64,000 nt of DNA. It comes from Bacteroidaceae bacterium. Lineage in GTDB: Bacteria; Bacteroidota; Bacteroidia; Bacteroidales; Bacteroidaceae. Positions 1 through 21,794 of this stretch are shown one piece after another. Made by a program: the position numbers and the translations under genes. The first letter of the stretch is position 1; each line of letters begins with the position of its first letter. The DNA lies in assembly GCA_016291905.1 (NCBI GenBank), contig JAEEZS010000067.1:7926-71925 (forward strand). The letters run 5' to 3'. A model generated the notes under the pieces. That model worked only from the letters and a program-made list of their open reading frames with translations. It was not told the DNA's origin and ran no database searches.

Positions 1-3000
1 TACAGAACTCAAAGCCGCCAGAAGCAGGTAATTGTGATAATACTCAAAGGTGCTGATGTTCATCTTGCCATCGAAAATGAGTTTGCGCACACCGTTCTCA
101 GTCGTATAGTAAACCTTGTTGATGTTGCTTTCTGGATCTTGGCTGTTATTGTAAAAAGTATCAAAGGTGTATGGTATGTGCAAATCAGAGTCGAACTTGT
201 TACTCCACTTGATGCAGGAATAAGCCACTTTCGTGGGATCCAAATCATCTTTCAGCAGCGAAGCATCGAACACATTTCTGTAATCCTCCTCATATATTTC
301 GTCAGAAAAAAATTCCTGCTCCAGCTTTTCAAGGAATTCTTCTTTGGTGTAAGTGGTTCCATCAATAACCTCTACCTTTTCCTTAAATTCGCGGACAAAT
401 CTATCCCAATCTATATAAGTAAGGTTCAGATAACCAGTCTGCTCTGGTTCACCGTTTTCTTCATCGTATTGCTTAATACCGACTGCGTTAAGCAGTGTCT
501 CATATTTGTTCTCCAGACGAATCATTTCCAGCTCACCGCCACATAGGGGTAGCATGCTGCCCGTTTCCAATTCAGGGAGCACGGCGAAAATCCAGATGTC
601 GTCAAGCACGTAGTCGCCACCATCGGTACTCGTGGCGTTATTGTCTATCTTCAAGTAGTATTCAACGGAGCCATTGCCGTAAAACTCGAAGTAGAACTGC
701 TGCCAGATAAAATCACCGACATTGCTGAATACTTTGTTGTCATCAGGATAGATGATAGAACCATCTGCCTTTTGGACATGGTAGGGGAGCTGTCCTGGAC
801 AGAACGAATAGACCTCTTCCTCCGTGTAAGTGCCGTCACCTTTGGGTTTACGACCCATCACGGTTAGTATTACGCTGCCAGGCGAGGTGTTAACTGTACC
901 ATTAGTAATTGTAAAGCCACCTTGCAGCGAAGCCATCCATCCAGAACACATCAGCAGCGACCCTTCGCAGAAGTCACCGTCGAACGACACCGTGGCCACC
1001 TGCCCGGGCATATCGGAGGCATCGACAAACAGGAAACCCGGGTCGTAAGTAGTATTCGTATTTGTATTTGGGTATGGAAGACCAGTATTTTGTTCACTGA
1101 GATAGTCATTGATGCTACGGATAATGTAGGTCTTGTTATTGTTTGTACTGGCCGTGGCTGAATGTGTATTACCTATGCCTGAGCTTCCCCAACCGGCAGC
1201 AAGACGTATGTTGCCTTTTCGCCGTGCATAGGCATAGTTGGTAGTACTGTATTCCAATGGCAAGGCAGCCATCATGGCTTCCGTCGTGGTCTGGAACGGA
1301 GAGGTGAAGCCAAAGGTACGGGGATAGTCAAAGTTAAGATGCGCCTTTGGATTGCCGCAGCGTTTTATCAAGGCATTGGGTGAGCGTTTTGCCCTGTTTT
1401 CAGGAACATCATCCCCCACAAAGTCCATGTAAGGCAGCGTCTCGGTACCACCATCGAAGATGATGGTGAATTTTGCCACGTTATATTCGTTCCCATGGCC
1501 GTCAGCGTCTTTGGCAAACACTTTGATGACTATCTTCGAACCGGCGGGCACCTCATGAGTAGAAGGATAGCTGAAGGAAATATGGCGTCGACGTTTGTGG
1601 CTGGTGTTCGACATAAACATACCATTGTCAGTTTCTTTCGACAATTGGACAAAATGTCCACCATTTTCAAGGTTTATGTCTATATTATTGGGTTTTTCGA
1701 GAACTATTCTATAGTACTTATCGAAATTGGTGCCGTCAACCTGGGCCATTGAGACAAGATTCTCATCGATGCGTTGTGCTGCATCGCCAGTGTAGTTCTT
1801 ATAGAACCAGTAGTTCTCAAGGTCGTTTTGTATAGGGATATACTCGTGACTCAGCCCTTGTGTGCGGCTAGGAAAGTGGATGGTGCGTTCTTCAAGCCAG
1901 TCATCATCGCCTGTCTTGCTCACAATCTTGTCGGCTATCACCTTGGCGTCAACGAGCTTCCATATCTGCCGAAGGCTCAGTGTGGGCTCTGTCAGATTGC
2001 CGGCTTCGCCCATGCTCGTAGCAGTGCCATTTTCAAACCGCATATCGGTCATATTTTGCTGGAGTTCGTAGCTGAAGTCGCAGGCAATGGTCACACTATC
2101 CTCGTTGGTAGGCAGGCGTCCAATGAGCGATAATCCCACATACATATCATAGGCGTCTGCCGCCGTCTTTTTGCTTAGGTTAATACCATCGTCGTTGATG
2201 AGTCCATTGCCCATCACAAGACCGTTCTGGTAGTAGAATGAGTTGTTGTTGTTGAAGGGCATGTGGTATTTGTGCTCTAAGGGCGTTTCGCTGTCGTAAA
2301 GATACCAACGCTGATAGGCAGCATGATGCGTTTTTGCCATACCGTTACTCGTTGTAATATACAGTCCCACGTATTCGCCCTGCTTGACATATCGCGTCAG
2401 CCGGTATTCGGGGGTATTTTGGACATCGACGCTTCCACCTCCCGATAGTGCTTTGTTCGTCAAACCAGATCCGGGCTTCAGGAATTCTTGGGGGAAGGCT
2501 CCACCCAAAGCGTTGGCGCGTTCCTGAAAATAGGAGGGCCGATGAATTACCCTGGAGTTTTTCGTAGCCTCATCGTACCAAGCATCATTGGTAGTTACTT
2601 TCTGGAAATAAATAGAGGCCCACTCCCTTTCGTTATATTCAGCGTTAGAACTATTGCTTAAGTTGCTGATTTCTTTCTCTATGAAATAGGTGCTATTGGG
2701 GACGGTTGTGGAGCCATAAAGTTTAGGTAGGAAGACCTTTCCTTCGTGCAATAGATAGTAACCGTATTCGCTGCTTGTCATGGTGAAATGGGCAGCTTTG
2801 GTATCATCGCTTGTGATGTAGTATTTGTTGTTGGTCGTGTCAAAGGCAATGTAGCGGTTGAATTCATTCTTAAAGCGATAGTAAAAGTCATCACCACTTA
2901 TTTCGGGATCCAACGCTGTCCAGGCCATTCCTCCATAGTTGGGGTAGAGGTTCATTAGATCGCAGTCTCCACCATGTTCCATTTCTACGTCGTACATGCC

Positions 3001-5343
3001 TCGCAGTTCATTATTCTTGAAGTAGAACACGTATTTTTCTCCATCTTCAAGTTCCGAAGGAATGAGATCTACACCAAAATAGGTGCTAATGGACACGGGC
3101 ACCTCCTTAAAGGAACTATTGCCTGCGTTGCCTTTTGTAGCCACGGTGGCACCTCCATAGAAATCACCTACGAGACGCGACAGGTGCCAGCCTGTCAGTT
3201 CGCGTGTAACAACAAACTGTGTGGCTTCATCTGCATTTGTAGTAGTGGTGTACCCATTAGTTCCATTCCACATCAAGTATTTCCCGCCGTACATGAAGGT
3301 GTAGATGCGGTTTTCACCACCATCATTGCCTACATACGTCACTTTCTTTGCACAAATGGGTGTGTCGTGGAAATAGAGCATATACCATTCGGACTCATTC
3401 AAAACCGTAGTCATTGTAGGACGTTGCGTTTCGACTTCATCGAGAGGGATAGAAGTATCTTCCTCAAACGTAAAGTAGGTGCTTGCCTTATCTGTATTGT
3501 TAGCATTCCTGCATTGATAGACCTCCTTGAAGGTGTTGCCTTCAGCTATCACTACTTTTACGTTAACGTAATCAGTGGTGACGCGCTCCAGATGCCAGCC
3601 CGAACGCTCGGCACGTATCTCGAACTTGGCTGCTTGTGAGGCATTGGTAGTATAAGCAAGTGTCGTACCGTTCCAATAAACATAGCGGCCTTTGTCGTGT
3701 TCAAGTGTATAATAGCCATCCGTACCGACGTGTGCCCTAATCAAGGTTTGCGGCAAACTACCACCGAACGACAATTTGTACCAATGGCCGTCCTCCATCG
3801 CGGGTACGTCTTGTGGCAACGGGTCATCGTTACGAATAAAGTCAAGTACTACTTTCTTGAAAGTATTAAAATTCGTGGCGTTTAAATCTGTAGTAGATCT
3901 AAACACGTATCTATGAGAACTACTATTCTCCATTTCGAATACTCCAGCAGGATTGGCTGCATCAGTAAGAGCTAGTTCATGGTCAACATCCCTTGTTCTG
4001 ATAATGAATGTTGCCTCCTTTGTTGGCTTGACGGTATAGACATTCCTGTTTCCCCATGCAGAATACTGGAAAGTGTTGCCTATATACAAGCCGTTATTAC
4101 TTTTAATGTAATAATTGCCTTCTGTGTCTGAACTTTCCAGCGTCCATGTCATACTCTTCATGTTTGCCGTAAAGGCTATCATGTTGTTGTTGTTGATTTT
4201 ATTTCCGCCAACTGTCGTTCCAGGGCTCTCAAAAAGTGCTGGATCATGTCCATTATAGGAGTCGGGGTATCCCAGTTCGTGAATGAATGCAGAATAGGTA
4301 TTATTGATAAACCTTATGAAATATGGCTGATTCACGGTGGGATAGTAATCTACCAGTTCCAATTCGTCATCAGTAGAATTCAGATTTTCAGACGATACAA
4401 TAAGCGATCCGGGGACGACTCTCTTATTGTCATCCACCGTTTGGGGACGCGCTACGAGGTCGCAGTCAGTGCCATCTGCATTTAATACTCGTAGCTTTGG
4501 ACGGGCGTATTCGCTATAATAAATTCGGAATCGGGTAGCTTGACTTTTGTCGGCTGTTGTCTTGAACTCTGTGCCGTCTAAAAAGATATAATGCTCTTGC
4601 AGATTACGCAGATATTTGCCGTCAACCCACTGCCAAAGTTTGTTGCTGGCATCTTCTTCAGTCAGGTTGTTTCCTCGAATGGTCATTGTCAAGGGTTGAT
4701 CCACGCCATTGTCGGTGGCAACAGGATAGGAGCCTACAGTAAATGCGTTTCGACTGGAGAAACGAATATAGAATGCTTCGGAAAAGGTCTCGTTATGATA
4801 GGAAAGAGCCTCAGTATAGGTGGTGGCTGTTCCGATGGCATATTTGGACTCGCTCCTTGATGGGACATCTACTATGTCAGCTCCGTCAACTGCTGCGCTA
4901 AAGCCCATCTCAAAGTCGGTCTGGTCTTTTCTGCGCAATTTAAGGTTGCCGTGAGCATCGGTAAAGGTTTCCATCGGCACAGCCTCGTTGCGGTTAGGAG
5001 TAACAGCATATTTTTGAGCGTTTGTATCGTAGCGAAGATAGCGGTTGTTAGAGTAGCAGACTAACAAATCTCCATCCCATCTCCAAAGACCTACTGGATC
5101 CGAATACAATCCTTGTTGCTCATTATCAGTTTGCATTCTACCCAATTCCAAACCGTTATCATCCGGCCATTTTGCTCTGACAAATCTACAATCGTTTTCA
5201 TTATCAATATTGACAAACTGGATGAAAAAGTATTCTTGTCCGTCAATAACAACAGCGTGGCTTTGTTGGCAAAACAATGTAGCCATTGCTCCGATGCAGA
5301 GCAATGTCCGAAGGATATGTTGGAAATATAGTCGTAGGCTCAT
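1..5343 (-). CDS. Giant secreted protein, 5' part only (>1780 aa; continues beyond the window start). Paralog of the 2047-aa protein at 7233-13376, with an extra N-terminal extension of about 790 aa
   Basis: Hand translation of the minus strand from the ATG (cat at 5341-5343) gives an uninterrupted frame down to nt 1. It is absent from the ORF track because no stop lies in the window. The N-terminus MSLRLYFQHILRTLLCIGAMATLFCQQSHA looks like a signal peptide. From about nt 2590 downward it aligns with the 2047-aa paralog: AYQRWYLYD/YYQRWYYYD, LTEPTLSLRQIWKLVDAKV/LTEPSLTIRHHFKLIDANV, WLEERTIHFP/WLEEHTIHFP, LLMCSGWMASL/KMMCSGWMTSI, GGDYVLDDIWIFAVLP/GGDYFLDDVWVYAKLP. Confidence 0.8.
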   Translation of the reverse strand, partial: MSLRLYFQHILRTLLCIGAMATLFCQQSHAVVIDGQEYFFIQFVNIDNENDCRFVRAKWPDDNGLELGRMQTDNEQQGLYSDPVGLWRWDGDLLVCYSNNRYLRYDTNAQKYAVTPNRNEAVPMETFTDAHGNLKLRRKDQTDFEMGFSAAVDGADIVDVPSRSESKYAIGTATTYTEALSYHNETFSEAFYIRFSSRNAFTVGSYPVATDNGVDQPLTMTIRGNNLTEEDASNKLWQWVDGKYLRNLQEHYIFLDGTEFKTTADKSQATRFRIYYSEYARPKLRVLNADGTDCDLVARPQTVDDNKRVVPGSLIVSSENLNSTDDELELVDYYPTVNQPYFIRFINNTYSAFIHELGYPDSYNGHDPALFESPGTTVGGNKINNNNMIAFTANMKSMTWTLESSDTEGNYYIKSNNGLYIGNTFQYSAWGNRNVYTVKPTKEATFIIRTRDVDHELALTDAANPAGVFEMENSSSHRYVFRSTTDLNATNFNTFKKVVLDFIRNDDPLPQDVPAMEDGHWYKLSFGGSLPQTLIRAHVGTDGYYTLEHDKGRYVYWNGTTLAYTTNASQAAKFEIRAERSGWHLERVTTDYVNVKVVIAEGNTFKEVYQCRNANNTDKASTYFTFEEDTSIPLDEVETQRPTMTTVLNESEWYMLYFHDTPICAKKVTYVGNDGGENRIYTFMYGGKYLMWNGTNGYTTTTNADEATQFVVTRELTGWHLSRLVGDFYGGATVATKGNAGNSSFKEVPVSISTYFGVDLIPSELEDGEKYVFYFKNNELRGMYDVEMEHGGDCDLMNLYPNYGGMAWTALDPEISGDDFYYRFKNEFNRYIAFDTTNNKYYITSDDTKAAHFTMTSSEYGYYLLHEGKVFLPKLYGSTTVPNSTYFIEKEISNLSNSSNAEYNEREWASIYFQKVTTNDAWYDEATKNSRVIHRPSYFQERANALGGAFPQEFLKPGSGLTNKALSGGGSVDVQNTPEYRLTRYVKQGEYVGLYITTSNGMAKTHHAAYQRWYLYDSETPLEHKYHMPFNNNNSFYYQNGLVMGNGLINDDGINLSKKTAADAYDMYVGLSLIGRLPTNEDSVTIACDFSYELQQNMTDMRFENGTATSMGEAGNLTEPTLSLRQIWKLVDAKVIADKIVSKTGDDDWLEERTIHFPSRTQGLSHEYIPIQNDLENYWFYKNYTGDAAQRIDENLVSMAQVDGTNFDKYYRIVLEKPNNIDINLENGGHFVQLSKETDNGMFMSNTSHKRRRHISFSYPSTHEVPAGSKIVIKVFAKDADGHGNEYNVAKFTIIFDGGTETLPYMDFVGDDVPENRAKRSPNALIKRCGNPKAHLNFDYPRTFGFTSPFQTTTEAMMAALPLEYSTTNYAYARRKGNIRLAAGWGSSGIGNTHSATASTNNNKTYIIRSINDYLSEQNTGLPYPNTNTNTTYDPGFLFVDASDMPGQVATVSFDGDFCEGSLLMCSGWMASLQGGFTITNGTVNTSPGSVILTVMGRKPKGDGTYTEEEVYSFCPGQLPYHVQKADGSIIYPDDNKVFSNVGDFIWQQFYFEFYGNGSVEYYLKIDNNATSTDGGDYVLDDIWIFAVLPELETGSMLPLCGGELEMIRLENKYETLLNAVGIKQYDEENGEPEQTGYLNLTYIDWDRFVREFKEKVEVIDGTTYTKEEFLEKLEQEFFSDEIYEEDYRNVFDASLLKDDLDPTKVAYSCIKWSNKFDSDLHIPYTFDTFYNNSQDPESNINKVYYTTENGVRKLIFDGKMNISTFEYYHNYLLLAALSSV

Positions 5344-5361: not shown

Positions 5362-6975
5362 TTATTGCTTAAGGATGTTATAGTTGAACTGATAGGCAAA
5401 GCCATCGAGTATAAGTTTTATCGTGACGGTGACCTGACCATTTTTATTGTCATCGTTAATCAGTTTGCCGACGATATCGCCCGAATCTAACTGAATGAAT
5501 CGCTGTTCAAAAATATTTAAATCGCCCGTTAGGACAATTCCCGTATAAATCGGTCCTGTCGTGTTTTCAGATGTTTTTTGGGTAAGGGACTCTGCCACGC
5601 CCGTGTCTGGTGTTGTCCATGCATATGGCTGAGAGCTGGTTACCGTCTGTTGCACAGCCGGTACTCCATTTACGATGTAGGGTTCTCCCTTAAGTTCGAA
5701 GGTGACGTTGCTATCATCGAAGCCGCGCCAGACGCCTTCGGGGTCGTCATTTTTACGGAACATGGGACGCAGGAAGATGTAACCACCGGAATTGAAGGTG
5801 ATGCTCAATGCATCCGCAGAAAGCACACGAGCCTGGAAACCGGCAATAGGCGGGAAGGGTAGTGCCTCCACACGGAATGTCCAGTCGTTGAAATCGATAG
5901 GAATCTTTATCCAGTCGTTACGGTGGATGTAGTCGAAACCTTTGGGGTCAATTCCTGTATTTACAGTGAAGCCATAGCGAAACTCTTCTACATCAGATGT
6001 GCCACGCCTTACTTTAATGCGGATGGAGTACTGGTTCTTATTCGGTTCCTCAGTGGATATGGCAGAGGCATTGGTCTCATTGACATAGAAGATAGGGGCT
6101 GTCTCTTGAGATGGCGGAGCATTTTCTACTTTTTTAGGCAAATAAAGAGAAGTGAGTGGATCCTTTTTTAAGTTTATGGCATAAGACTCTGTTTCATTGG
6201 CAGCAAGGATTGCAGGAAAGATTGGGTGTTCATCATCTGGTTCACTTCTTGGTTCGAGAAGGCTGACATAGTTTTCCTTGGCTAAGGGGGAAATTTCGAA
6301 GCCATCGATATACAAATCCTGCTGTGTACTGTTGAGGAACGTGAACTCCATCTTCGCCATGGCGCGGATGAGTTCTATTTCAAACGACTGGTTTTCGGCT
6401 TCGACGACCGTGATGGCTTGGCCGTTTATGTTGCTGGACATAGGAATTTTTCCCGTCCATCCGTTGGTAGTGGCAAGCCTTACGTTCGTCAAGTCTGGCA
6501 TGGATTCTCCTTTTGTAATCGCAGCTAAAGGAGTAAACACAAAAGAGGAAGGGTCGGTTACTGTGGCTTCTTTGGGTGTATATACTTTAACTAAAGAAGG
6601 TGACAATTGTAGAGAGGCTGTAGCAGGAGTGTATTCAGTTTCAGGTAGGTTGGCGAAGGCATAGGCGGTATAGTCCCCTGGGGGAAGAAAAAATTTGAAC
6701 GAGTGTTCTTCTGCACCGCCGGCAGTACCACGGGCAATTTCCTTGACAATATTATTATTGACAAATACCACGTAGTAATCGTGAATCAACTCGTTGTCGG
6801 AAACAGGGTCGAGTAAATCACCATAGGCGCGGGTGGCCTTATGGTAGGGCGCCGTGAGGTAAATCTCTACCTGCCCCATACCGGCGGGAATCGAATCGCT
6901 TGGTTCGTTACAAGCGCTCAACCCCAGTATAGCAGCGAGCGCAAGCAGACAATATATGGTGATGTTTTTTTTCAT
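5362..6975 (-). CDS. Type V pilin-like accessory lipoprotein (paralog of 13390-15000)
   Basis: 537-aa ORF. It has a lipoprotein signal (LLALAAILGLSAC) and the pilin-type propeptide cleavage motif YHKATRA. Both ends are very similar to the 536-aa paralog, including the block RNDWIK.P..F.DWTFR.EALPFPPIAGFQARVLS.DALSITFNSGGYIFLRPMFR. Confidence 0.8.
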   Translation of the reverse strand: MKKNITIYCLLALAAILGLSACNEPSDSIPAGMGQVEIYLTAPYHKATRAYGDLLDPVSDNELIHDYYVVFVNNNIVKEIARGTAGGAEEHSFKFFLPPGDYTAYAFANLPETEYTPATASLQLSPSLVKVYTPKEATVTDPSSFVFTPLAAITKGESMPDLTNVRLATTNGWTGKIPMSSNINGQAITVVEAENQSFEIELIRAMAKMEFTFLNSTQQDLYIDGFEISPLAKENYVSLLEPRSEPDDEHPIFPAILAANETESYAINLKKDPLTSLYLPKKVENAPPSQETAPIFYVNETNASAISTEEPNKNQYSIRIKVRRGTSDVEEFRYGFTVNTGIDPKGFDYIHRNDWIKIPIDFNDWTFRVEALPFPPIAGFQARVLSADALSITFNSGGYIFLRPMFRKNDDPEGVWRGFDDSNVTFELKGEPYIVNGVPAVQQTVTSSQPYAWTTPDTGVAESLTQKTSENTTGPIYTGIVLTGDLNIFEQRFIQLDSGDIVGKLINDDNKNGQVTVTIKLILDGFAYQFNYNILKQ

Positions 6976-6981
6976 ACTTGT

Positions 6982-7040
6982 TTAGATGTATATGATAGAA
7001 TGTTCTACCGAGATCTATTTTTGAAGAAAATACTAACCAT
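6982..7040 (-). pseudogene. Short relic of the 3' end of an Mfa1-family pilin gene (homologous to the end of 15007-16584)
   Basis: Nucleotides 6976-7035 align by eye at about 70-75% with 15001-15060. The alignment includes the stop codon position (tta at 6982-6984 versus 15007-15009), but there is an indel and no ORF. Confidence 0.35.
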
Positions 7041-7182
7041 CAACTCCTCGAGTGTACTGGACCCCGTAGTGGCATTGATGGAGAACCTATATCAATTGTT
7101 GTATACTATACCTTATTCCATAAAGTCGTGGTTTATGTTTACAGTGATTGATTCTAAATCTACAGCGTTTGATTCTATATTT

Positions 7183-7220
7183 TTATCGTATAACGCTGTG
7201 TTTACAGCGTTATACGATAA
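7183..7220 (-). terminator. Perfect 17-bp stem-loop immediately downstream of the giant gene stop (possible terminator or processing site)
   Basis: ttatcgtataacgctgt / gttt / acagcgttatacgataa. The stem is flanked by T5 and A4 runs. No canonical U-tract follows the stem on the minus-strand transcript. Confidence 0.45.
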
Positions 7221-7232
7221 AAAGTATGCCTA

Positions 7233-13389: not shown

Positions 13390-15000
13390 TTAGTTTTTCT
13401 CATAGATATTATAGTTGAACTGGTAGGCAAAGCCATCCAGCTTGAGCTTTAGCGTGACCGTGACCATACCCACTGTTTTCGAGGGATCAGTGACATCAGT
13501 AGTCTTGCTGTTCGTTAGTTTGCCGACAATGTCGCCCGAGGGTAACTGAACAAATCGCTGTTCCAAAATGCCTAAGTCACCCGTGAGTACAATGCCCGTG
13601 CCTGTATCCGGATCAATGGACTCTGCTACGCTATTATGCGTAAGGGGCGTTGTCCATGCATACTGCTGAGTATCGGTTATCGTTTGTGCCACTGCCGGCT
13701 CTCCGTTTACAGTATAGGGCTCGGGCGGGAGCACGAAGGTGACGTCGCTGTCGTCGAAACCGCGCCACACGCCTTCGGGGTCGGCATTGTTGCGGAACAT
13801 TGGACGGAGGAAGATGTAACCGCCAGAATTGAAGGTAATGCTGAGTGCATCGGTGGAGAGCACGCGAGCCTGGAAGCCGGCAATAGGCGGGAAGGGGAGT
13901 GCTTCAATGCGGAATGTCCAGTCGGTGAACATGATGGGCAACTTGATCCAGTCGTTACGGCGGATATAGTTAAAGCCGTTGATGTTATCGCCTTCACCAT
14001 CCTCCTTTAGAGGGTCGAAACTCATCCCAGAAGTTTCGCTGTTTACTGTGAAACCATAGCGATAGTCGATAACATAATTATTTGGATCATCATCTTCATC
14101 ATCATCTTCTTCTGCATTGCGATAACGCCTTGCTTTAATTCGGATGGAGTATTGGTTCTCGGTAGATGTTGCAGAGGCGTTGGTCTCGTTGACATAGAAA
14201 GCCTTGGCAGTTTGGGATGTCGGAACTAACATAGTCGGAGTCATGGCTGGTAATTTGAGTGGATCATCTTCACGATTCACGGCAAATGACTCTGATTCGG
14301 TGGTAACGATATGTTCGGGATCCGTTGGTTCAAGGAGGCTGACATAATTGGTCTTAGTCAAGGGGGAAATCTCGTATCCGACGATGCCCATCCGTTGTTG
14401 TGAATTGTTGATGAAAGTAAGTTCAATCTTCGCCATAGTACGGATGAGTTCAATCTGGAACGTCTGGTTCTCGGCTTCATAAACCGTGACGCTTTGTCCG
14501 CCTGTATGACTGGTCATGGGAATGTTTCTCGTCCATCCGTTGGAGGTGGCAATTTTCATGGTCGTCAGATCGGGCAGGGCCGAGCCTTTTACGATACCCA
14601 ACGAGGAAAATGGCGTTCCGGGGATAGCGGGGTCTTCTCCATTTGCAGGAATGTCTTCAGGAAGGTTGGCGAAAGCATAGACGGTATAGTTCCCCGGGGG
14701 AAGCAGGAAACGGAATGTATCCTCTTCCTTGCCATTGGCATTGCCCTGGGCAATTTCTTCGACAATATTACTGCTGTTGACGAATACCACGTAGTAGTCG
14801 TGAATCAACTCTTCCGAGCGATTAGGATCGGGATCCAGCCAATCGCCGCTAGCGCGAGTGGCCTTATGGTAACGTGAAGTGAGACGTATCTCAACCTTCC
14901 CCATTCCTTCCGGGATGGAATTGTCATTTTCACTACAAGCGCTCAGCCCCAGTATGGTGGCGAGCGCAAGCAGACAGTATATGGTGATATTTCTTTTCAT
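13390..15000 (-). CDS. Type V pilin-like accessory lipoprotein
   Basis: 536-aa ORF with a lipoprotein signal (LGLSAC) and the YHKATRA propeptide motif. It is a paralog of 5362-6975 and carries an acidic insert (EEDDDEDDDPNN). Confidence 0.8.
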   Translation of the reverse strand: MKRNITIYCLLALATILGLSACSENDNSIPEGMGKVEIRLTSRYHKATRASGDWLDPDPNRSEELIHDYYVVFVNSSNIVEEIAQGNANGKEEDTFRFLLPPGNYTVYAFANLPEDIPANGEDPAIPGTPFSSLGIVKGSALPDLTTMKIATSNGWTRNIPMTSHTGGQSVTVYEAENQTFQIELIRTMAKIELTFINNSQQRMGIVGYEISPLTKTNYVSLLEPTDPEHIVTTESESFAVNREDDPLKLPAMTPTMLVPTSQTAKAFYVNETNASATSTENQYSIRIKARRYRNAEEDDDEDDDPNNYVIDYRYGFTVNSETSGMSFDPLKEDGEGDNINGFNYIRRNDWIKLPIMFTDWTFRIEALPFPPIAGFQARVLSTDALSITFNSGGYIFLRPMFRNNADPEGVWRGFDDSDVTFVLPPEPYTVNGEPAVAQTITDTQQYAWTTPLTHNSVAESIDPDTGTGIVLTGDLGILEQRFVQLPSGDIVGKLTNSKTTDVTDPSKTVGMVTVTLKLKLDGFAYQFNYNIYEKN

Positions 15001-15006
15001 ACTTGT

Positions 15007-16584
15007 TTAGACGTATATAATTGGATGCTCAACGGAAACCCATTTTTTGACGTAGATGCGTGCCTTCAGCTCCTCCGGATGACGAGGATCAGGCTCGGGA
15101 GTGCCGGGGCCTGTGGCGGCGTCGATGGAGAACCGATAGATGTTATTGCGCACGATACCGAACTCCATGGTATTGTGAACCACCTCCACTTTGTTGGAGT
15201 GGCGCATATAGACATAGTAGTAACATACACCGCCCTCATACTTCACCACTTTGCCGAAGTGACCCTTAGCGGTATTGGTGGCATAAGCATCGGCATCAAG
15301 CTTATTCTTGAAGTAAAGACGCTCGCTTTCGTCAATGGTCGGAGTGTTGAGTTCAACCATATAGAATGTCTCACCTAATGTATAGGTTCCCGTGGTTAAT
15401 GCATCGTTCTCTTTATCATAACTAATATAATAGTTATGTTTAGGAACAAAACGGCACTTCAGCTGCACGCCTGTAGTATATTCTGCAAAGGTGCAGGTGC
15501 GGTCGAAGGTGTTTTCATTGACATAGCCCAGAATCTGATTTTCTTTCGTCGGGTCAAGGTCAAAACGCGGTGTGGGTGTCGTGCCGAAGAGCGTTGTAAG
15601 CAGGGTGGTATTAGTGCGGTTGGCGTCAGTCTTTTGTGCAGAGTAGGGGTCGATGACATAGTTTGTGGCGACACCATTGGGGGTGGGAGTCTCGTCACCT
15701 AGATATGTTAGGTTTGTGCCATTAATATCGTTAGCCACACGTTTGATGAGATATGAGGGCTGAATGCTTCCGTTGACGATTTGCAACTCATCGAGATATA
15801 ACTCTGAAAGGAGGGTGCTCTCGCTGTTCTTTAATTGATAGACGAGGCTTTTACCGTCATTGGAAATGCGTGAGTAATTGTCTCGCTTAAAGTCGATGCG
15901 CGCTGCCAAACGCTCGATGGTTACATGCAGGCGTACGGGACTGTCAAGGGTTCCATAGCCATTATAATAGATAGCGTCGTTCTCGTTCGACATTACAAAA
16001 TTGCTGTATTGGGCAATTGTTTCTCCAGGTTCGAATGACTTTTCAGGCAGGAAGTCACGTAATACACCTAACGTAGTGACATTGGCAACAATATTACCCA
16101 CGTTGGCAGCTATGATGAAGCGAAGTTGACGCAGTCGCTCTTCGTTTTCAATGAATTCAGAAATGTTTTCTGTTCCTAGAGGTACGGCAACGTTGAATAC
16201 GTAGCTGAAAACATTTTTATTGACTCCTTTTAGAGGAATTTCCTCAAGGGATGTGGTAGCCGTCAATACTTCATCGTGATTAAAATAACGTGCAGCGACA
16301 AAAGACGTTGTAGCATCATCGTTGATATTGTTACCGTCCAACACGAAGAGGCAAAAATCATAAATGGAATTCTCATAGTCATATCCATACTCCCAGCCAT
16401 CGCCCTGCTCGCCTCCGTTGGGATTGGCGCGAGTGGCAGAATTGTTGCTTAAGTCAAGTGACAGCTGCACATAGAGACTATCGCCAAGCACCCTCTGTTC
16501 CGTGAGGTCTTCAATGCGTGAGTCTTTACATGCCGCCAAGCTCAGCAGCAGGAGAAGGATTGATATGTAGTGAAGCACTTTCAT
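15007..16584 (-). CDS. Mfa1-family (Fimbrillin_C-type) accessory pilin lipoprotein
   Basis: Lipoprotein signal LLLLSLAAC and an N-terminal SATRA cleavage motif. The C-terminal block GIVRNNIYRFSI...GPGTPEPDP...IYVKKWVSVE parallels GVLRNNWYKLTV...PEPVEPGPEPDD...IHVMPWTLRV of the neighbouring major pilin. Confidence 0.75.
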   Translation of the reverse strand: MKVLHYISILLLLLSLAACKDSRIEDLTEQRVLGDSLYVQLSLDLSNNSATRANPNGGEQGDGWEYGYDYENSIYDFCLFVLDGNNINDDATTSFVAARYFNHDEVLTATTSLEEIPLKGVNKNVFSYVFNVAVPLGTENISEFIENEERLRQLRFIIAANVGNIVANVTTLGVLRDFLPEKSFEPGETIAQYSNFVMSNENDAIYYNGYGTLDSPVRLHVTIERLAARIDFKRDNYSRISNDGKSLVYQLKNSESTLLSELYLDELQIVNGSIQPSYLIKRVANDINGTNLTYLGDETPTPNGVATNYVIDPYSAQKTDANRTNTTLLTTLFGTTPTPRFDLDPTKENQILGYVNENTFDRTCTFAEYTTGVQLKCRFVPKHNYYISYDKENDALTTGTYTLGETFYMVELNTPTIDESERLYFKNKLDADAYATNTAKGHFGKVVKYEGGVCYYYVYMRHSNKVEVVHNTMEFGIVRNNIYRFSIDAATGPGTPEPDPRHPEELKARIYVKKWVSVEHPIIYV

Positions 16585-16611: not shown

Positions 16612-17766
16612 CTAATTAAGTTCAACATTCTGGAAGCGTTGTGTCCAGGGAAGCGTATGTATGCCCAGACTTAGGTACTCCCATTTATCGCCTACGAGGA
16701 TGAAGTCGAGGCGATAATCGTAGGCGCGATCAAGAAATCCCTGAGCCGTGTAGATATAGCGTTCTACAGCGCCGCGCCCTTGCTTGAGGATTTCGGGCAG
16801 GTTGATGGCTGCCACCGTCTTGTTGTCGGGACGATGGACGATGTAAAGCATAGCAGGAGCCACCGTACTGTTGCCAGAGCGCAGCATCAGACGGTTGAAG
16901 TCGATGTCGGCATGTGCGGTTTCTTCAACGGCATTGTCGTTGGAAGGCCGCTGGTCGTAGCTCTGGCCAGTGGTTCCGCTGTAATAGGTGTTCCATTCGT
17001 CGAACGGACGATAGGTGATAGTGGGTGTGCCGACGGTATCGACGGAATTATCCCACAAAAGCCGACCATTGATGTCAACAATGCGGATGTCGTAGTCGGC
17101 AATATCGCAATGGGCAGGGTCGTCGCTCTGTCGGAGCGAGATATGTAGGCGTTTGGTGTCGCGCACAAGGCTGACAATACATTTTGTCAGTTCGTATTTG
17201 TGGACGCTGACGGTCTGTGCGTCGACGAGCACGTCTTCTTCAGCGGCACGGGTGGGGTTCAGCGTATATTGTGCAGAACGCAAGGTGCCGTGCCAGAGGG
17301 TGTCAAGTTGTTGGGCGATTTGTGTGGCGGCTTGTGCGCCAGGTTGTGTGGCGAGTGTGACATTGAGGTCTGTCATAGGGCCATTTTCTCCGTCACGTAG
17401 GTAACGTACACCAGAAAGCTGGCTGATATCGGCGTACTGACGCTGGTTAGCCAGCGCCAGTAGCCGATATTCACCGGGCTGCAGTCCAACGACGGTCATG
17501 CGATAGTTCGGGTCGCGTAGGGGCTTGGCCGAGGAGGTGTTATCCTCGGTCTGCGTGCGCACCAGCTGGCCAGCCTCGTCGTAGACGTAGAGCGTGATGC
17601 TGCCCACATGGTCATTAAACATGTTGGCTCTTTCCACGTTATAGTCGTAAACAAACTCCACGCTGAGTCCCTGCGGACAGTCTTCAAGGCTGTCGGACAT
17701 CAGGGAGCAGGCCGTCAGGCTGGCGCAGGCTGCTATTGCTATGAATGTCTTATAAATGAACTGCAT
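16612..17766 (-). CDS. FimB/Mfa2-family fimbrial anchor or length-regulator lipoprotein
   Basis: Lipoprotein signal (ACASLTAC). It has Mfa2-like N-terminal features (EDCPQGLSVEFVYDYN...ITLYVYDEAGQLV) and sits directly after the major pilin gene. Confidence 0.7.
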   Translation of the reverse strand: MQFIYKTFIAIAACASLTACSLMSDSLEDCPQGLSVEFVYDYNVERANMFNDHVGSITLYVYDEAGQLVRTQTEDNTSSAKPLRDPNYRMTVVGLQPGEYRLLALANQRQYADISQLSGVRYLRDGENGPMTDLNVTLATQPGAQAATQIAQQLDTLWHGTLRSAQYTLNPTRAAEEDVLVDAQTVSVHKYELTKCIVSLVRDTKRLHISLRQSDDPAHCDIADYDIRIVDINGRLLWDNSVDTVGTPTITYRPFDEWNTYYSGTTGQSYDQRPSNDNAVEETAHADIDFNRLMLRSGNSTVAPAMLYIVHRPDNKTVAAINLPEILKQGRGAVERYIYTAQGFLDRAYDYRLDFILVGDKWEYLSLGIHTLPWTQRFQNVELN

Positions 17767-17819: not shown

Positions 17820-19649
17820 TCAGAGCTTGTAATTATCCTGAACACGGAGAGTCCAAGGCATTACGTGGATCTTCACGCTGATGTACTTGTCAACCTCGTC
17901 GTCGGGTTCGGGACCGGGTTCAACGGGTTCGGGCTTGCCGATGTGGCGGATGCCGGTGACAGTCAGCTTGTACCAGTTGTTGCGGAGAACGCCCCAACGA
18001 CCCAGATAATAGGCGGCACGATTTGTCACAGGATAGGTGTCGTTATATGCGGCACTCTGCTTGTTGACGGCATCCCACGGAGTCTCGTCGTTGGAAAAGT
18101 GCTGGATGGGTACATAGTAGTAAGCCATACCTTGAGGATAAACATAAATGGGCGAATTTGTCATCGTTTCCTCATACTTATCTTGTACATCAGTGAAGTC
18201 TACAGTAGCGGTACCGTTGTAATCAATGGCTACTTCAACATCCTCCAATTCAGTCTCTGTTAGGGTCACATCAATATCGTCTCTACCAATCCAAACACCA
18301 ATCTCTGTGTGGACAGCAGTTCGGAATGTTTCCCAAGCCGGCAGTCCAAGTACGATATTTTTGATGTGAGTTTTGACTCCAGCTTCGTCGTAAATGAAAT
18401 CAGTACCAGTTGTGCCAGGAAGGGTGTAGAACTTGTTTCCTCCATTCAGTTTAACGCCAACAGCCACATATGTAGTGTTCCGGTGTGTCATCAGGGTCTC
18501 GTCCATGGTGTTTTCGGTGGTGTACATAATATCACCCGTTTTCTTTGTATAGGCTGTGGTTGAGGGAACTCCATTGTCTAATAATTTGCCCGTTGTGTTG
18601 TCAACACCATAGTTCGGGTCCATACCCCAATAGGTGCGCCATACGCCGGAGTGTATAGGAGTATAGCCTACGAAGCGATATTTATAGTTTGCGCCAGGAG
18701 CGGCTTCTTGCGTTGCAGGAATTCCTTCACCAGGAGCATAAAGTTCCAGCCATGTGCTGTTGAACTGACGGCCAATGAAGAAGGTCTTGTTCGTGTTGCC
18801 AAGAGTCCATACAAATGACGTGGCATCGAAAGTCACATCAGTATTGCCCTCAATGGTTGTCGTTGAGGGGAAGTTCGTTGTTACTTCCACTTTGACGGCG
18901 GAGCGGCCTACGTACACTTCAGCAGCGGGGTTGCTGCGGGCCATTTCGCGGGTATTGTAGATTTTCGACTTGTCAAGTTTTGCAAGAGCGGTAACCTTTG
19001 CACCCTTCGGGTTTTCCGAGCCACCCTGCTTGTCGCTGTTGGGAGCGCTGGTCATCAGCATATTGCCCAGTTCGCCAATTCTTTGTGCAGCAAGTTCATA
19101 CTGTGTGAATTGTTCAAAAGTGACACTACCTGGCGTGAGTGGTTCGGTTGCGGTCTCGGTAACATTGTCACCTGCCACAGTAGCTTTTTTGACCGTCAGA
19201 GTCTGGTTAGCGGCATTCACATAGAACAGATTTTCAGTCTTACCATTAATGATGACATAAGCGTAGACTTCGTCAGTCGACTGTTCTTCCTTCTGCTGGA
19301 GCAGAGCTGTGAGACGAGCCTCGGTGGTACAGCCGTCGGTCGTGGTTTCATCAGTTTCGAAGGGCGTCGTATCCAGTTCGTAAGCGCTTTGGAATTTGGC
19401 GGAGGCCTCATCGGTTCCGGCGAAGATTACAAGGATTGCATCTTTCACTTGGTACTCTTCTGCAAGACCATCGTCCCAGTCATCGTTCGCACGGGTGCTG
19501 GAGGGAGTGGTGGGCAACATGATGTTGAAGGCAACGTAGCCCTCGCCGGTAGGACCATAAGGGCTATTGACTTTAACATCATCATTACTGCTGCAGGAAG
19601 CCAGTATGCAGGCCGCTACAGCCATCATGGAAAAAAAGAATTTTTTCAT
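17820..19649 (-). CDS. Mfa1-family major fimbrial subunit
   Basis: 609 aa with lipoprotein signal AACILASCSS, propeptide motif PSSTRAND and a Fimbrillin_C-like C-terminus. Confidence 0.75.
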   Translation of the reverse strand: MKKFFFSMMAVAACILASCSSNDDVKVNSPYGPTGEGYVAFNIMLPTTPSSTRANDDWDDGLAEEYQVKDAILVIFAGTDEASAKFQSAYELDTTPFETDETTTDGCTTEARLTALLQQKEEQSTDEVYAYVIINGKTENLFYVNAANQTLTVKKATVAGDNVTETATEPLTPGSVTFEQFTQYELAAQRIGELGNMLMTSAPNSDKQGGSENPKGAKVTALAKLDKSKIYNTREMARSNPAAEVYVGRSAVKVEVTTNFPSTTTIEGNTDVTFDATSFVWTLGNTNKTFFIGRQFNSTWLELYAPGEGIPATQEAAPGANYKYRFVGYTPIHSGVWRTYWGMDPNYGVDNTTGKLLDNGVPSTTAYTKKTGDIMYTTENTMDETLMTHRNTTYVAVGVKLNGGNKFYTLPGTTGTDFIYDEAGVKTHIKNIVLGLPAWETFRTAVHTEIGVWIGRDDIDVTLTETELEDVEVAIDYNGTATVDFTDVQDKYEETMTNSPIYVYPQGMAYYYVPIQHFSNDETPWDAVNKQSAAYNDTYPVTNRAAYYLGRWGVLRNNWYKLTVTGIRHIGKPEPVEPGPEPDDEVDKYISVKIHVMPWTLRVQDNYKL

Positions 19650-19708
19650 AATTTTTGATGATTAAAAAATAAATAATTAAAATGTTTAACTCTATATTCT
19701 ATTCACAA

Positions 19709-21199
19709 TTACTTTCTATCTTTGTAGGGTAACATCTTGCGGATGGCTTCGCGGTTGCGGCTGACGTCGATGCCCAGTTGCTCGGCACGGTCGAGCATGC
19801 GGCTGGCATCGTCGTAGCGTTCCTGAAGGATGTAGAGGGCTGCACGGGCGTTCAGAGCCTCGCCACTTTCGCCGGCATTCTTCAGAAGGGACTCGGCCTT
19901 CAACTTGTCTCCCTGATGAAGGGCTACATTGGCCAAGTTAATCATAGCCACGGTAGAATCAGGATAGGTGTTGTAGGCTCTTTGTATCACTTGATTGTAT
20001 TCGTCACTATAGGGCTCGAAGGTGTTGGCTACCTCCCAGAACTCGTGGAGCGAGAGGTGCTGGGGGCGTGTGGCATAAATTTGAAGGGCTTCCTCAAGGG
20101 TGAATTTACGAATGTCGAAGGATATCTCGTAATCGGAGCGACGCAGACCGGGATAAACATTCTGCAGCAGATAACGGTACTCCTGAGGATATTTCGACTT
20201 AAGGGCATGTTCATCTCGGTCAGCTTGGTTGGTGACACCACGGTCGAGGTCAGCAAGCACCTTGTCAATGAGCTGAAGAATCTCTGTGCGATGAGGCAGA
20301 ACGTCTGTTGTCATCTCGTCAACAGCCTGACGCAGTCCAATCCAGTTCTCAGGCGTAGCCTCAGCGGGAGCGAACACGTCAGCGGGCAGGTTGTATGCCT
20401 TGCGCACGTAGTCGGTAAGTGACTTGGCACGGTTGGTTGCCAGCATAGTGTTGTGCTTATAAGTGGCCTCAGGCGATGCCCAACCGTGAATCTTCACCTC
20501 GCGCACGGTAATGTTGGGGTCTTGCACCATGATGTCGAGCGTATCGGTAATCTTGCGCAGCTCACGGCGGTTGTCCATGTAGTCGGGCTTCATCTCCCAA
20601 CGGTCAACCACAAAGTTGATGAATGCTGTGCCATGCAGATTGATGGTAGGCTTCTCAAGCGAAGGCGTTTCGTTGACTAAGGCGATAAGCTCAACAGGAT
20701 CGGGCGGCAGGTCGCGACGCAGAGAGGGTACGTAAGGCATCGAAGAGAGGTCGCCGCAGGCGCAGAGGTCCTCCTCAAGGAGCAGCTGATAGCTGTCCAT
20801 CCACGACTCATAGGGAATGGTGCTGAGGTAGGACACGGTAAGGGGCTTGTTGTTCTTATGCTCTACGTGGCGAACATTCTTGTAAACCAAGTTGGAAAGC
20901 CCGCGTTGATAGAGCACATATTGAGCATGGCTGTCAATGACCAAGGGGTCGAAGGGGACGCGGTTGGTGCCATCAAGGGACGTGAGCACAGGATGAAGCA
21001 CCACCGACTGCTTATGGTTGAGGCTGAGTTCATCGAGACAGACGTCCATGGTCAGTAGCATCTGATTGTCCCTGGGGGTTAAGAGCGCATTCTTTACCAC
21101 GGTCTTTCCGTCGCTCAGCGTTTGAGCAAACAAAGGCTGGAAGGCCACCACGACAAGCAGCCCTGCAAGAATATAGCGTAACTTAATAGTCCTATACAT
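19709..21199 (-). CDS. DUF3868-like protein with an OmpA-like region and C-terminal TPR-like repeats (pilus-operon associated)
   Basis: Signal peptide, an OmpA-like motif (GWASPEATYKHNTMLATNRAKSLTDYV) and a helical repeat tail. It follows a DUF3575-like barrel gene, as is typical of Bacteroidales type V pilus loci. Confidence 0.6.
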   Translation of the reverse strand: MYRTIKLRYILAGLLVVVAFQPLFAQTLSDGKTVVKNALLTPRDNQMLLTMDVCLDELSLNHKQSVVLHPVLTSLDGTNRVPFDPLVIDSHAQYVLYQRGLSNLVYKNVRHVEHKNNKPLTVSYLSTIPYESWMDSYQLLLEEDLCACGDLSSMPYVPSLRRDLPPDPVELIALVNETPSLEKPTINLHGTAFINFVVDRWEMKPDYMDNRRELRKITDTLDIMVQDPNITVREVKIHGWASPEATYKHNTMLATNRAKSLTDYVRKAYNLPADVFAPAEATPENWIGLRQAVDEMTTDVLPHRTEILQLIDKVLADLDRGVTNQADRDEHALKSKYPQEYRYLLQNVYPGLRRSDYEISFDIRKFTLEEALQIYATRPQHLSLHEFWEVANTFEPYSDEYNQVIQRAYNTYPDSTVAMINLANVALHQGDKLKAESLLKNAGESGEALNARAALYILQERYDDASRMLDRAEQLGIDVSRNREAIRKMLPYKDRK

Positions 21200-21212
21200 T
21201 ATTAATATATAA

Positions 21213-21794
21213 TTAGAAGTTGTAAATTAGGTTAAGCGCGAGTTTCGTGGGACCGAAGTAGTTGTAGTGTCCGCTGCCTGTCTGCGTGCCGCATACCTCG
21301 CAGGGGAATTTTTTGTACTGAACGTAGTCGTAGCCGAGGCCGAGGACAGTCTCCACACTAAAGTGACGACTGACAGGCCATTGGTAACCATAAACGAAAC
21401 CGCCACCTGCATACCAACCTTCATAACGGTTGTTGTGCAGACAAGGGGCTATGCCAAAGGGGAACTTCACTCCGCCGGCATTGAACTCACCACCCATGAG
21501 ATGGAGGCCTATGAAATGTCCGTTGAATGCCTGGCAGAACCAATAGCGGAGTTCAGGCTGCAGAAGCCAGTGACGCCACTTCTTGTTGTCGCTGAATGTC
21601 CAAGGATTGATGCCGTAGGTGAGGTCGAATGTCCATTTGGGTGACAAACCCACCTCCATACTGACGTTTGGAGTAAGAGTGGCATCATAAAGCAGGTTGT
21701 TCTTCAATGAAATCTGGGCCTCGGCCTGATTGCTTGCTGCCAAGAAAATCACCAACAGCAACGTTCTGCCAATGGTCCTTTGTATGTGCTGCAT
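21213..21794 (-). CDS. DUF3575-like small outer-membrane beta-barrel protein
   Basis: The internal start MQHIQRTIGRTLLLVIFLAASNQAEAQ gives a signal peptide and lies downstream of the -7 box at 21851-21858. The longer ORF start (21914) lies upstream of that promoter. The sequence LKNNLLYDATLTPN...WRHWLLQPELRYWF is DUF3575-like. Confidence 0.7.
   Translation of the reverse strand: MQHIQRTIGRTLLLVIFLAASNQAEAQISLKNNLLYDATLTPNVSMEVGLSPKWTFDLTYGINPWTFSDNKKWRHWLLQPELRYWFCQAFNGHFIGLHLMGGEFNAGGVKFPFGIAPCLHNNRYEGWYAGGGFVYGYQWPVSRHFSVETVLGLGYDYVQYKKFPCEVCGTQTGSGHYNYFGPTKLALNLIYNF

Follow-up and report, generated by a model that had tools for sequence, protein, structure and literature searches.

The closest described counterpart of the locus studied here is the Mfa system of Porphyromonas gingivalis, in which Mfa3, Mfa4 and Mfa5 depend on one another to form a tip complex and the T9SS is required for Mfa5 (PMC5954841, PMC8313007). 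P. gingivalis mfa5 genotypes D and E, which lack a vWA domain, and tandem mfa5 genes have also been published (PMC8313007). The combination of vWA/MIDAS and isopeptide Ig domains belongs to genotypes A-C. The P. gingivalis Fim system, with the accessory pilins FimC-E (FimD being the tip adhesin), likewise has accessory pilins matured as lipoproteins but lacks a T9SS-dependent component. A second point of comparison is provided by RemA and RemZ (Fjoh_0803) of Flavobacterium johnsoniae, which are type A T9SS substrates.

We analyzed a window of 64,000 nt (the whole stretch of DNA considered here) from a Bacteroidaceae bacterium (GCA_016291905.1, contig JAEEZS010000067.1, positions 7,926-71,925, forward strand). 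The host is a rumen member of the Bacteroidales, and the window carries an Mfa-type (type V) pilus operon of nine genes, all on the minus strand. The genes are arranged in the order DUF3575, DUF3868 with TPR, Mfa1-like pilin, Mfa2-like anchor and second Mfa1-family pilin, followed by two consecutive pairs of a lipoprotein and a giant protein. The leading features are as follows.

21851..21858, minus strand: putative Bacteroidetes-type -7 promoter motif TAccTTTG (motif match), 57 nt 5' of the DUF3575 start codon.
21213..21794, minus strand: DUF3575 protein with signal peptide, first gene of the operon (Pfam PF12099, E 1e-71).
19709..21199, minus strand: DUF3868 protein with C-terminal TPR repeats (Pfam PF12984, E 5e-10; TPR matches weak).
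17820..19649, minus strand: Mfa1-family lipoprotein pilin, 609 aa (NF038041, 166 bits; Fimbrillin_C, E 4.5e-25).
16612..17766, minus strand: Mfa2-like anchor/terminator pilin, 384 aa (Pfam PF08842, E 2.6e-43).
15007..16584, minus strand: second Mfa1-family pilin, 525 aa, in the mfa3 position (NF038041, 138.5 bits; Fimbrillin_C, E 4.7e-13).

The open reading frames and the Pfam and NCBIfam assignments confirm the nine co-directional pilus genes reported in a first-pass annotation. The NF038041 (cut-off 130 bits), Fimbrillin_C and PF08842 matches agree with its assignment to an Mfa-type type V operon, as the locus has both a major subunit of the Mfa1/FimA fimbrillin family and an Mfa2/FimB-type anchor gene. 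That annotation had called the second gene "DUF3868/OmpA-like"; the DUF3868 part stands, and Pfam gave no OmpA match. The DUF3575 reading frame is open up to 21914, but translation likely begins with the ATG at 21794, matching the call in the related locus L001 (193 aa). Gaps between genes measure 6-59 nt; only the one from giant A to lipoprotein B is longer, at 257 nt. The TRA motifs described earlier are present in the 609-, 525-, 536- and 537-aa proteins, each of which has a lipobox Cys with the motif 25-35 residues beyond it, so that cleavage is predicted from sequence motifs. The 609-aa protein (lipobox LASC, site STR↓A) is likely the shaft subunit, and the 525-aa pilin has lipobox LAAC and site ATR↓A. 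No T9SS genes were seen within the 64-kb window. An upstream inverted repeat was considered as an invertible switch; L001, the sole related assembly covering it (97.6% identical), carries the repeat in the same orientation, and thus no inversion was seen.

The shaft, anchor, accessory pilin, Mfa4-type lipoprotein and large predicted Sec/T9SS protein follow the same order as P. gingivalis mfa1-mfa5, and the lipoproteins with Arg maturation sites are a further likeness. Unlike the P. gingivalis operon, the one described here is headed by the DUF3575 and DUF3868 genes, and its duplicated unit takes in the Mfa4-like gene rather than an mfa5-like gene alone. The duplicated genes and the regions of the giants discussed below are as follows.

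13390..15000, minus strand: lipoprotein A, Mfa4-like, 536 aa (profile A5 against PDB).
7233..13376, minus strand: giant A, 2047 aa, with Sec signal peptide (…VEA↓Q), beta-sandwich/jelly-roll array, conserved C-terminal third and CTD.
7242..8231, minus strand: Mfa5/RemZ-homologous C-terminal module, giant A residues 1716-2045 (profile A3 against 8gl8_D; hmmsearch, hhalign).
7236..7484, minus strand: T9SS type A CTD, giant A residues ~1965-2047 (TIGR04183; Foldseek).
5362..6975, minus strand: lipoprotein B, Mfa4-like, 537 aa (58% identical to lipoprotein A; Pfam Mfa2, E 3.6e-5).
1..5343, minus strand: giant B, residues 1-1781 of 3003, running to the window edge (the rest, including the CTD, from contig L004).
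2596..5256, minus strand: N-terminal extension of giant B, residues 30-916 (~885 aa), missing from giant A, with internal ~130-aa repeats.

Judged by their sequences, lipoproteins A and B are specifically Mfa4-like. The best PDB match of the family profile A5 (23 members) was P. gingivalis Mfa4/PG49 (4rdb_A, E 2.7e-5), with 5dhm_C at E 2e-4; the matches span profile positions 40-288, and the C-terminal ~190 positions have no counterpart in Mfa4, the lipoproteins here being ~200 aa longer. Within their N-terminal ~200 aa, both A and B also match the FimD tip adhesin model NF052322 weakly (E 1e-11 and 6e-5), a likeness to the Fim system whose score of 44 bits falls far short of the cut-off of 170, and the N-terminus of lipoprotein A (lipobox LSAC, site KATR↓A) weakly matches NF038041. 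The two lipoproteins are 58% identical (568 bits). Their ends, earlier described as near-identical, are less alike than that, with 78% identity over residues 1-50 and 55-65% at the extreme C-terminus; identity reaches 90% over residues 351-400.

When both giants were searched by sequence in Pfam, NCBIfam and PDB, the CTD was the only part recognized. Giant A is a T9SS type A cargo by its C-terminal sorting domain, and its export is predicted: TIGR04183 matches residues 1987-2045 with 27.9 bits against a cut-off of 23, in agreement with the first-pass annotation, while Pfam PF18962 scores 18 bits, under its cut-off of 27. The modeled CTD fits that of RemA (8gl6_D) with a target-normalized TM of 0.79 and an rmsd of 1.8 A, and Foldseek matched the model also to the CTDs of RemZ, NucA and RgpB; on the CTDs of RemZ and RemA, the predicted fold superposes at 1.8-1.9 A. 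Alignment A2 shows no variation at Lys2044, the conserved C-terminal Lys. The first-pass annotation saw a CTD on the complete copy only; contig L004, which matches the window at 100% identity over 15.9 kb, extends giant B to its full 3,003 aa and shows that it has a type A CTD of its own. Giant B also has its own signal peptide.

The homology of the giants to Mfa5 is confined to their C-terminal end. The module at giant A 1716-2045 comprises an NPFxCGLDM domain, a pre-CTD Ig-like domain and the CTD. P. gingivalis Mfa5 was obtained via the Mfa4 sequence from the PDB alignment, by scanning metagenome contigs for mfa loci. The last ~330 aa of the giants match Mfa5 residues 909-1244 (hhalign 95.7%, E 8.5e-9; hmmsearch ~50 bits, domain E ~1e-16 in a targeted search with Z=1). 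This segment of Mfa5 lies within the region common to mfa5-1 and mfa5-2, which are 85% identical from residue 684 on; no counterpart of residues 684-908, the first part of that common region, was detected in the giants. The profile A3 of the same module also matches RemZ (8gl8_D, E 1.2e-13) over residues 760-1103, ~340 aa including the CTD. RemZ differs from the giants in its length (1,114 aa), in an N-terminal part without match to them and in not lying beside type V pilin genes; RemA travels along the cell surface within the gliding machinery.

The first ~1,700 residues of the giants matched nothing described, and showed no similarity to the retrieved Mfa5 genotypes, including the mfa5-2 N-terminus. 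Structure models predict beta-sandwich/jelly-roll arrays for this part. Foldseek searches with two AlphaFold models returned, for residues 1-1835, generic beta-sandwich arrays, including CBM4-2, MAM and galactose-binding-like jelly rolls, and no vWA, enzyme or pilin fold; neither 6tnj nor 6to1 was among the best 50 matches per model. No ligand-binding site was identified among these generic matches. No VWA Pfam match was obtained for either giant, whereas P. gingivalis Mfa5, used as a control in the same test, gave VWA_2 at 3.6e-16; the absence of a vWA MIDAS noted earlier is borne out by both the Pfam and the Foldseek searches. ARM2 and isopeptide Ig domains, known from Mfa5, are likewise missing. 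Given the lack of a vWA and the Mfa5-homologous last ~330 aa, the giants are, on sequence criteria, vWA-less proteins at the mfa5 position, paralleling genotypes D/E and the tandem mfa5-1/mfa5-2. The suggestion of a distinct tip-protein family does not hold in full, given the Mfa5-homologous tail.

Residues 33-2047 of giant A can be aligned to residues 917-3003 of giant B with 46% identity (1745 bits, far beyond chance), which substantiates the common core proposed previously, and their conserved C-terminal part is 62-76% identical. The two pairs are homologous, as expected of a tandemly duplicated module; the ~885-aa extension of giant B makes the modules unequal in length. Self-comparison of this extension revealed ~130-aa repeats (E down to 9e-14), and the corresponding extensions of relatives gave weak beta-trefoil matches (Fascin, RicinB_lectin_2, CCL2-like); thus, the repeats are probably beta-trefoil lectin-like. 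Two features lie between the modules.

7176..7223, minus strand: perfect 20-bp hairpin directly 3' of the giant A stop (-27 kcal/mol, z-score -9.3).
6976..7118, minus strand: degenerate 3' remnant of a 525-like pilin gene (78% identical to 15001-15140; 21-nt deletion; repeat D3).

By its sequence, the remnant shows where the duplicated unit is bounded on its upstream side. The hairpin is possibly a terminator, an attenuator or an RNA-stability element; L001 has a hairpin at the same site with a different stem sequence. Loci with two modules are L001 and L002 (two ENA assemblies, ~90% identity), L004-L007 and L008 (MAG UBA1189).

An exhaustive HMMER search placed the giants in a family of 804 clusters (50% identity, E<=1e-30), the best 150 matches all being family members. 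A C-terminal alignment profile, searched against 5.8 billion proteins, returned family fragments and unrelated CTD proteins only, and not Mfa5. Members of 2,000-4,800 aa, compared with 1,228-2,204 aa for Mfa5, fill the mfa5 position in Prevotella, Paraprevotella, Alloprevotella, Muribaculaceae, Parabacteroides and Porphyromonadaceae, and a Sec signal peptide together with a type A CTD is present in every member examined. Most hosts are Prevotella-like bacteria of the rumen and gut. Across other species, 77 loci repeat the order Mfa1-like, Mfa2-like, 525-like, lipoprotein, giant, and the lipoprotein gene lies directly upstream of the giant gene (its end within 400 nt) in 50 of the 62 testable cases from other genomes. 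The arrangement of lipoprotein plus giant is thus widespread yet undescribed in Prevotella and relatives. Where giants occur in tandem (the window, L003, L020 and L014), their C-terminal 700-800 aa are alike (45-90% in most 100-aa segments) and their N-termini differ (20-53%), much as the tandem paralogues mfa5-1 and mfa5-2 have a common C-terminal part and differing N-termini. Nothing informative emerged from the gene neighborhoods of P0071 and P0115, two shorter and remote relatives.

With moderate confidence, we interpret the locus as encoding a type V pilus of the Mfa type for which two alternative accessory modules are available. By analogy with P. gingivalis Mfa1 fimbriae, we infer from the gene content and homologies described above that the giants are incorporated into the pilus. 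The 609-aa lipoprotein would be exported, cleaved at its TRA site on the C-terminal side of the Arg, and polymerized into the shaft by strand exchange, with the 384-aa Mfa2-like protein anchoring and terminating the shaft. The 525-aa pilin and an Mfa4-like lipoprotein would make up the accessory complex, to which each giant, partnered with its own upstream lipoprotein, could be held through the conserved C-terminal part ending in the Mfa5-like ~330 residues. The diverged N-terminal ~1,200-2,100 residues, with their beta-sandwich/jelly-roll arrays and the ~130-aa repeats of giant B, would form the ligand-binding end. Such partnering would make each lipoprotein and giant a functional cassette, and with two cassettes a single type of shaft may give the cell two specificities of adhesion. 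The most economical reading is still that the two giant adhesins are alternative or co-displayed, as proposed at the outset.

RemZ has not been described as a pilus protein, and the C-terminal module may therefore only mean "surface-retained T9SS cargo". The giants could accordingly be free-standing surface adhesins of the RemA/RemZ type, exported by the T9SS, retained at the outer membrane by A-LPS or a partner lipoprotein and co-regulated with the pilus while remaining outside the filament, in which case the Mfa4-like lipoprotein would be a docking partner and not a pilus subunit. The module's match to the homologue of a gliding adhesin rather than to a pilin points in this direction, as do the closer tie of the giant to the lipoprotein than to the shaft genes (the pair being the duplicated unit), the strong hairpin separating modules A and B, and the reported transcription of P. 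gingivalis mfa5 apart from mfa1-4. We nevertheless consider this rather unlikely. Wherever enough upstream sequence is available, the pair is nearly always found 3' of, and co-directional with, the Mfa1-, Mfa2- and 525-like genes; the TRA site of the lipoproteins, typical of anchor-released pilins, fits an incorporated subunit better than a permanent anchor; and Mfa5, which bears the same module, has been recovered in purified P. gingivalis fimbriae according to the literature.

It is less probable still that the giants are not adhesins but surface scaffolds that bind or degrade carbohydrates and capture plant fiber, with the pilus genes serving as a tether only. The rumen and gut habitat, the carbohydrate-binding folds among the structural matches and the lectin-like matches of relatives would suit such a role, but carbohydrate-binding modules suit adhesion equally, searches of Pfam, NCBIfam and PDB sequences found no catalytic domain in the giants, and the operon has no neighboring polysaccharide-utilization genes. 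The pseudogenized 525-like fragment upstream of lipoprotein B might suggest that module B lacks a function of its own, being either a duplicate in decay or a product of misassembly. This is effectively refuted, as both module-B genes are intact long open reading frames and the two-module arrangement is present in four independent assemblies; giant B moreover combines its signal peptide and intact CTD with a unique 885-aa extension.

Returning to the pilus with two accessory modules, we tentatively raise the possibility that the ~330-aa module of the giants, Mfa5 and RemA/RemZ acts as a general hand-over from T9SS export to a cognate Mfa4-like lipoprotein. The Mfa4-like lipoprotein and giant might then constitute a self-contained, horizontally exchangeable adhesin cassette that places varied ligand-binding heads on a common type V shaft. 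If true, such cassettes would be a major, unrecognized means by which Prevotella of the rumen and gut diversify their adhesion. How the T9SS cargo Mfa5 joins a pilus of lipoprotein pilins is a question in P. gingivalis too, on which the locus bears: a very large unannotated T9SS protein family fills the mfa5 position while keeping only the Mfa5/RemZ-like tail, and this tail, together with the near-constant Mfa4-like pairing, narrows candidate docking to one module and one partner. Docking studies could draw on the family's many natural variants and on at least one carrier in culture, Prevotellamassilia timonensis An873 (locus L051), and the locus points to a modular route by which surface adhesion may diversify in dominant rumen and gut Bacteroidales.

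Recombination between the modules was also considered as a source of variation, the first-pass annotation having proposed that the repeats drive copy-number or chimera variation. At the DNA level, modules A and B are 70-75% identical with a longest exact match of 23 nt, making them a poor substrate for inter-repeat recombination, which is unlikely to drive such variation. Between-strain comparison instead revealed that related strains are mosaic at the pilus locus.

We identified nine co-directional minus-strand genes that fill the left 21.8 kb of the window, in the order read from the sequence at first pass. HMM searches bear out this order and supplied the identities listed below. They also confirm the gene first called DUF3868/OmpA-like as DUF3868, but returned no OmpA match for its product.

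Genes of the pilus operon
21213-21794, minus strand, DUF3575 protein (E 1e-71)
19709-21199, minus strand, DUF3868 protein with TPR repeats (HMM search)
17820-19649, minus strand, Mfa1-family fimbrillin (NF038041, 166 bits, cut-off 130)
16612-17766, minus strand, Mfa2-type anchor (E 3e-43)
15007-16584, minus strand, second Mfa1-family pilin (NF038041, 138.5 bits)
13390-15000, minus strand, lipoprotein A, 536 aa (weak N-terminal matches to NF038041, the Mfa1 family, and to FimD)
7233-13376, minus strand, giant A, 2047 aa, with a type A C-terminal sorting domain (CTD)
5362-6975, minus strand, lipoprotein B, 537 aa (Pfam Mfa2, E 3.6e-5)
1-5343, minus strand, giant B, incomplete at the window edge

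The genes are spaced 6-59 nt apart, except for 257 nt ahead of lipoprotein B, and a Bacteroidetes-type TAccTTTG motif lies 57 nt 5' of the operon's first start codon. The 609-, 525-, 536- and 537-aa proteins each carry a lipobox Cys followed, 25-35 residues on, by a TRA site.

As judged from sequence, the duplication of the lipoprotein-giant module is real and old. The ENA assemblies L001 and L002 and the MAG UBA1189 (L008) show the same two-module layout, which rules out an assembly artefact as the source of the second module and bears out the tandem duplication first described. A decayed copy of the 525-aa pilin gene's 3' end (~140 nt, 78% identity, 21-nt deletion) is found upstream of lipoprotein B, indicating that the original duplicated unit began within that gene and took in the giant. 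Lipoprotein A shares 58% identity with lipoprotein B; the diverged middle reported earlier is seen as many indels, but the ends are not near-identical, as residues 1-50 share 78% identity and conservation peaks at residues ~345-450 (74-90%). A public contig (L004), 100% identical to the window across 15.9 kb, provides the remainder of giant B, which is 3,003 aa long with its own signal peptide and CTD (75% identical to that of giant A over the last 47 residues). The CTD, at first visible only on the complete copy, is thus present in both giants. The common core proposed for the giants holds: residues 33-2047 of giant A can be aligned over their full length to residues 917-3003 of giant B (46% identity). 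Up to about residue 1,300 of A the identity is 26-47%, and beyond it, as far as the CTD, 62-76%. Specific to giant B is an N-terminal extension of ~885 aa built of ~130-aa repeats; the matching region in relatives gives weak beta-trefoil matches (Fascin, RicinB_lectin_2, CCL2-like).

The first-pass annotation had suggested copy-number or chimera variation driven by these repeats. Recombination between them is unlikely, given DNA identity of only 70-75% and a longest exact match of 23 nt. The locus is mosaic among related strains. Compared with L001, the stretch that starts at the flanking MscS gene and takes in most of lipoprotein A is 97% identical; identity is 89% across giant A, lipoprotein B and giant B up to codon ~265, and only a patchy 66-74% in the rest of giant B within the window. 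In the comparison with L008, the pilin genes either show ~82% identity or cannot be aligned, and giant A and the giant B N-terminus are 93-94% identical. This pattern indicates that segments have been exchanged between strains.

The predicted type A CTD of giant A scores above the TIGR04183 cut-off (27.9 versus 23 bits). A family alignment of 56 sequences served to compute AlphaFold models of two segments, residues 1-1200 (mean pLDDT 78.8) and 1201-2047 (mean pLDDT 68.1). In these, the final ~80 residues can be overlaid on the translocon-bound CTDs of RemA, RemZ and NucA and on that of RgpB (best match TM 0.79, rmsd 1.8 A). As in RgpB, an Ig-like domain sits ahead of the CTD. The remainder is a string of beta-sandwich/jelly-roll domains with only generic matches (MAM, CBM4-2, reelin and complement-type arrays). 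No vWA fold was among the 50 best structural matches listed per model, and neither giant has a Pfam VWA match, in line with the missing MIDAS motif first noted; Porphyromonas gingivalis Mfa5 was clearly positive in the same Pfam test.

The best solved relative of a lipoprotein profile (23 homologues) is P. gingivalis Mfa4 (4rdb_A, E 2.7e-5), so the duplicated pair corresponds to an Mfa4-like lipoprotein plus a protein at the mfa5 position. With the Mfa4 sequence from the PDB alignment as query, we retrieved P. gingivalis mfa loci from metagenome contigs. A giant C-terminal profile built from 21 diverse family members matches Mfa5 residues 909-1244 in a targeted search (~50 bits, domain E ~1e-16); hhalign gives 95.7% probability (E 8.5e-9) over 318 columns, equivalent to residues 1716-2045 of giant A. 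When run on the whole PDB sequence set, this profile matches Flavobacterium johnsoniae RemZ residues 760-1103 (E 1.2e-13). Published mfa5 genotypes D and E lack the vWA, all genotypes have the C-terminal half and CTD in common, and some strains carry a tandem pair of mfa5 genes (PMC8313007). In the retrieved tandem pair, mfa5-1 and mfa5-2 have their C-terminal part in common, starting at residue 684 (85% identity over the retrieved part); the N-terminal 1,630 aa of mfa5-2 show no Pfam domain and no similarity to the giants. The N-terminal signal of the mfa5-2 protein (L088 8643-14495; L090 11549-16567) resembles that of a lipoprotein (…FSLGSC) and is not a plain signal peptide. Given the tail homology and the published vWA-less and tandem mfa5 genes, the giants are best described as mfa5-position proteins that lack a vWA and combine an Mfa5/RemZ-type tail with a novel body. 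The distinct tip-protein family proposed earlier does lack a vWA, but its separateness from Mfa5 was overstated.

By homology and synteny with P. gingivalis, in which the accessory proteins Mfa3, Mfa4 and Mfa5 depend on one another to form a complex and Mfa5 requires the T9SS (PMC5954841), the giants would act as pilus accessory proteins. The main rival is that they are RemA-like surface adhesins outside the filament, retained by the partner lipoprotein, a reading kept alive by their RemZ homology and by the tight lipoprotein-giant pairing. The step of direct pairing is weakened in both the pilus model and this rival. The earlier observation of the locus as a whole was sound, and its interpretation largely right.

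The unannotated giant family is large and ubiquitous, with a common C-terminal module of ~330 aa now delimited and a conserved pairing with an Mfa4-like lipoprotein. A first database search returned 71 relatives of 1,310-3,462 aa, nearly all missing precomputed Pfam domains. An exhaustive HMMER search with the C-terminal profile, run on 1.84 billion cluster representatives, gave 804 proteins when the limit was E<=1e-30 and 2,016 when it was E<=1e-10; the best 150 are mostly 1,600-4,800 aa, besides some fragments, and the ten of these looked up are all without a name. Scanning species-representative genomes yielded 77 loci in rumen and gut Prevotella and Prevotellaceae MAGs, Paraprevotella, Alloprevotella, Muribaculaceae, Parabacteroides, Porphyromonadaceae and the cultured Prevotellamassilia timonensis An873. 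Two contigs with this Bacteroidales-type locus (L046, L049) are filed under MAGs named 'Clostridiales bacterium' and 'Oribacterium sp.', labels that probably reflect binning contamination. The order Mfa1-like, Mfa2-like, 525-like, lipoprotein, giant is repeated at nearly all loci with sufficient upstream DNA. Upstream sequence of 1.5 kb or more was available for 62 giant genes; in 50 of these cases a gene of the lipoprotein A/B family ends within 400 nt of the giant, and two of the giants directly follow another giant. Other tandem layouts also occur: we found giant-giant (L003, L020) and lipoprotein-lipoprotein-giant-giant (L027) arrangements, and a whole or partial second module in five others (L014, L025, L035, L071, L082). 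Tandem paralogues are usually similar over the C-terminal 700-800 aa and differ at their N-termini.

Between the operon and a divergent MscS-like gene (22410-24191), a 48-nt inverted repeat (22027-22286; 79% complementary, core ATAGCGGCTGACAACCC) encloses 164 nt in which a 21-nt unit is repeated three times in tandem (22090-22160), and GGCTGACAACCC occurs a third time near 22310. The TAccTTTG motif, which resembles a promoter, is outside this element, and no inversion was seen in the one related assembly compared (L001, identical orientation). A perfect 20-bp hairpin (7176-7223; -27 kcal/mol, z-score -9.3) directly follows the giant A stop. In L001 this position also holds a hairpin, with a stem that differs in sequence, suggesting that the modules are separated by a conserved RNA or terminator element; the whole spacer is missing in L008. 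Beyond the window, 3' of giant B, L004 carries three tandem copies of CAGATTAGAAAGGCCTTCTGC (19620-19690) and then a GC-rich hairpin, just past the giant B stop and before a convergent AhpC/Redoxin gene.

The G+C content of the pilus operon is 44-51% (window 1-26000) versus 54-64% in housekeeping genes elsewhere (26000-35000, 40000-48000 and 56000-64000; methylmalonyl-CoA mutase, HerA-like, Hsp90, Lon), and the operon may be laterally acquired or compositionally distinct. A low-GC island (48000-56000, G+C 39-47%) looks like a defence island.

Genes of the 48000-56000 island
49666-50304, small VWA-domain protein
458-aa ORF of no known identity
51873-52841, ADP-ribosylglycohydrolase
52923-54632, GmrSD-type nuclease (PADLOC Orf5, E 2e-151)

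A second low-GC island (35700-39600, G+C 38-41%) holds four ORFs of 177-281 aa, none with a Pfam match; one, at 36650-37471, has a weak PADLOC match to ShosT (E 1e-5).
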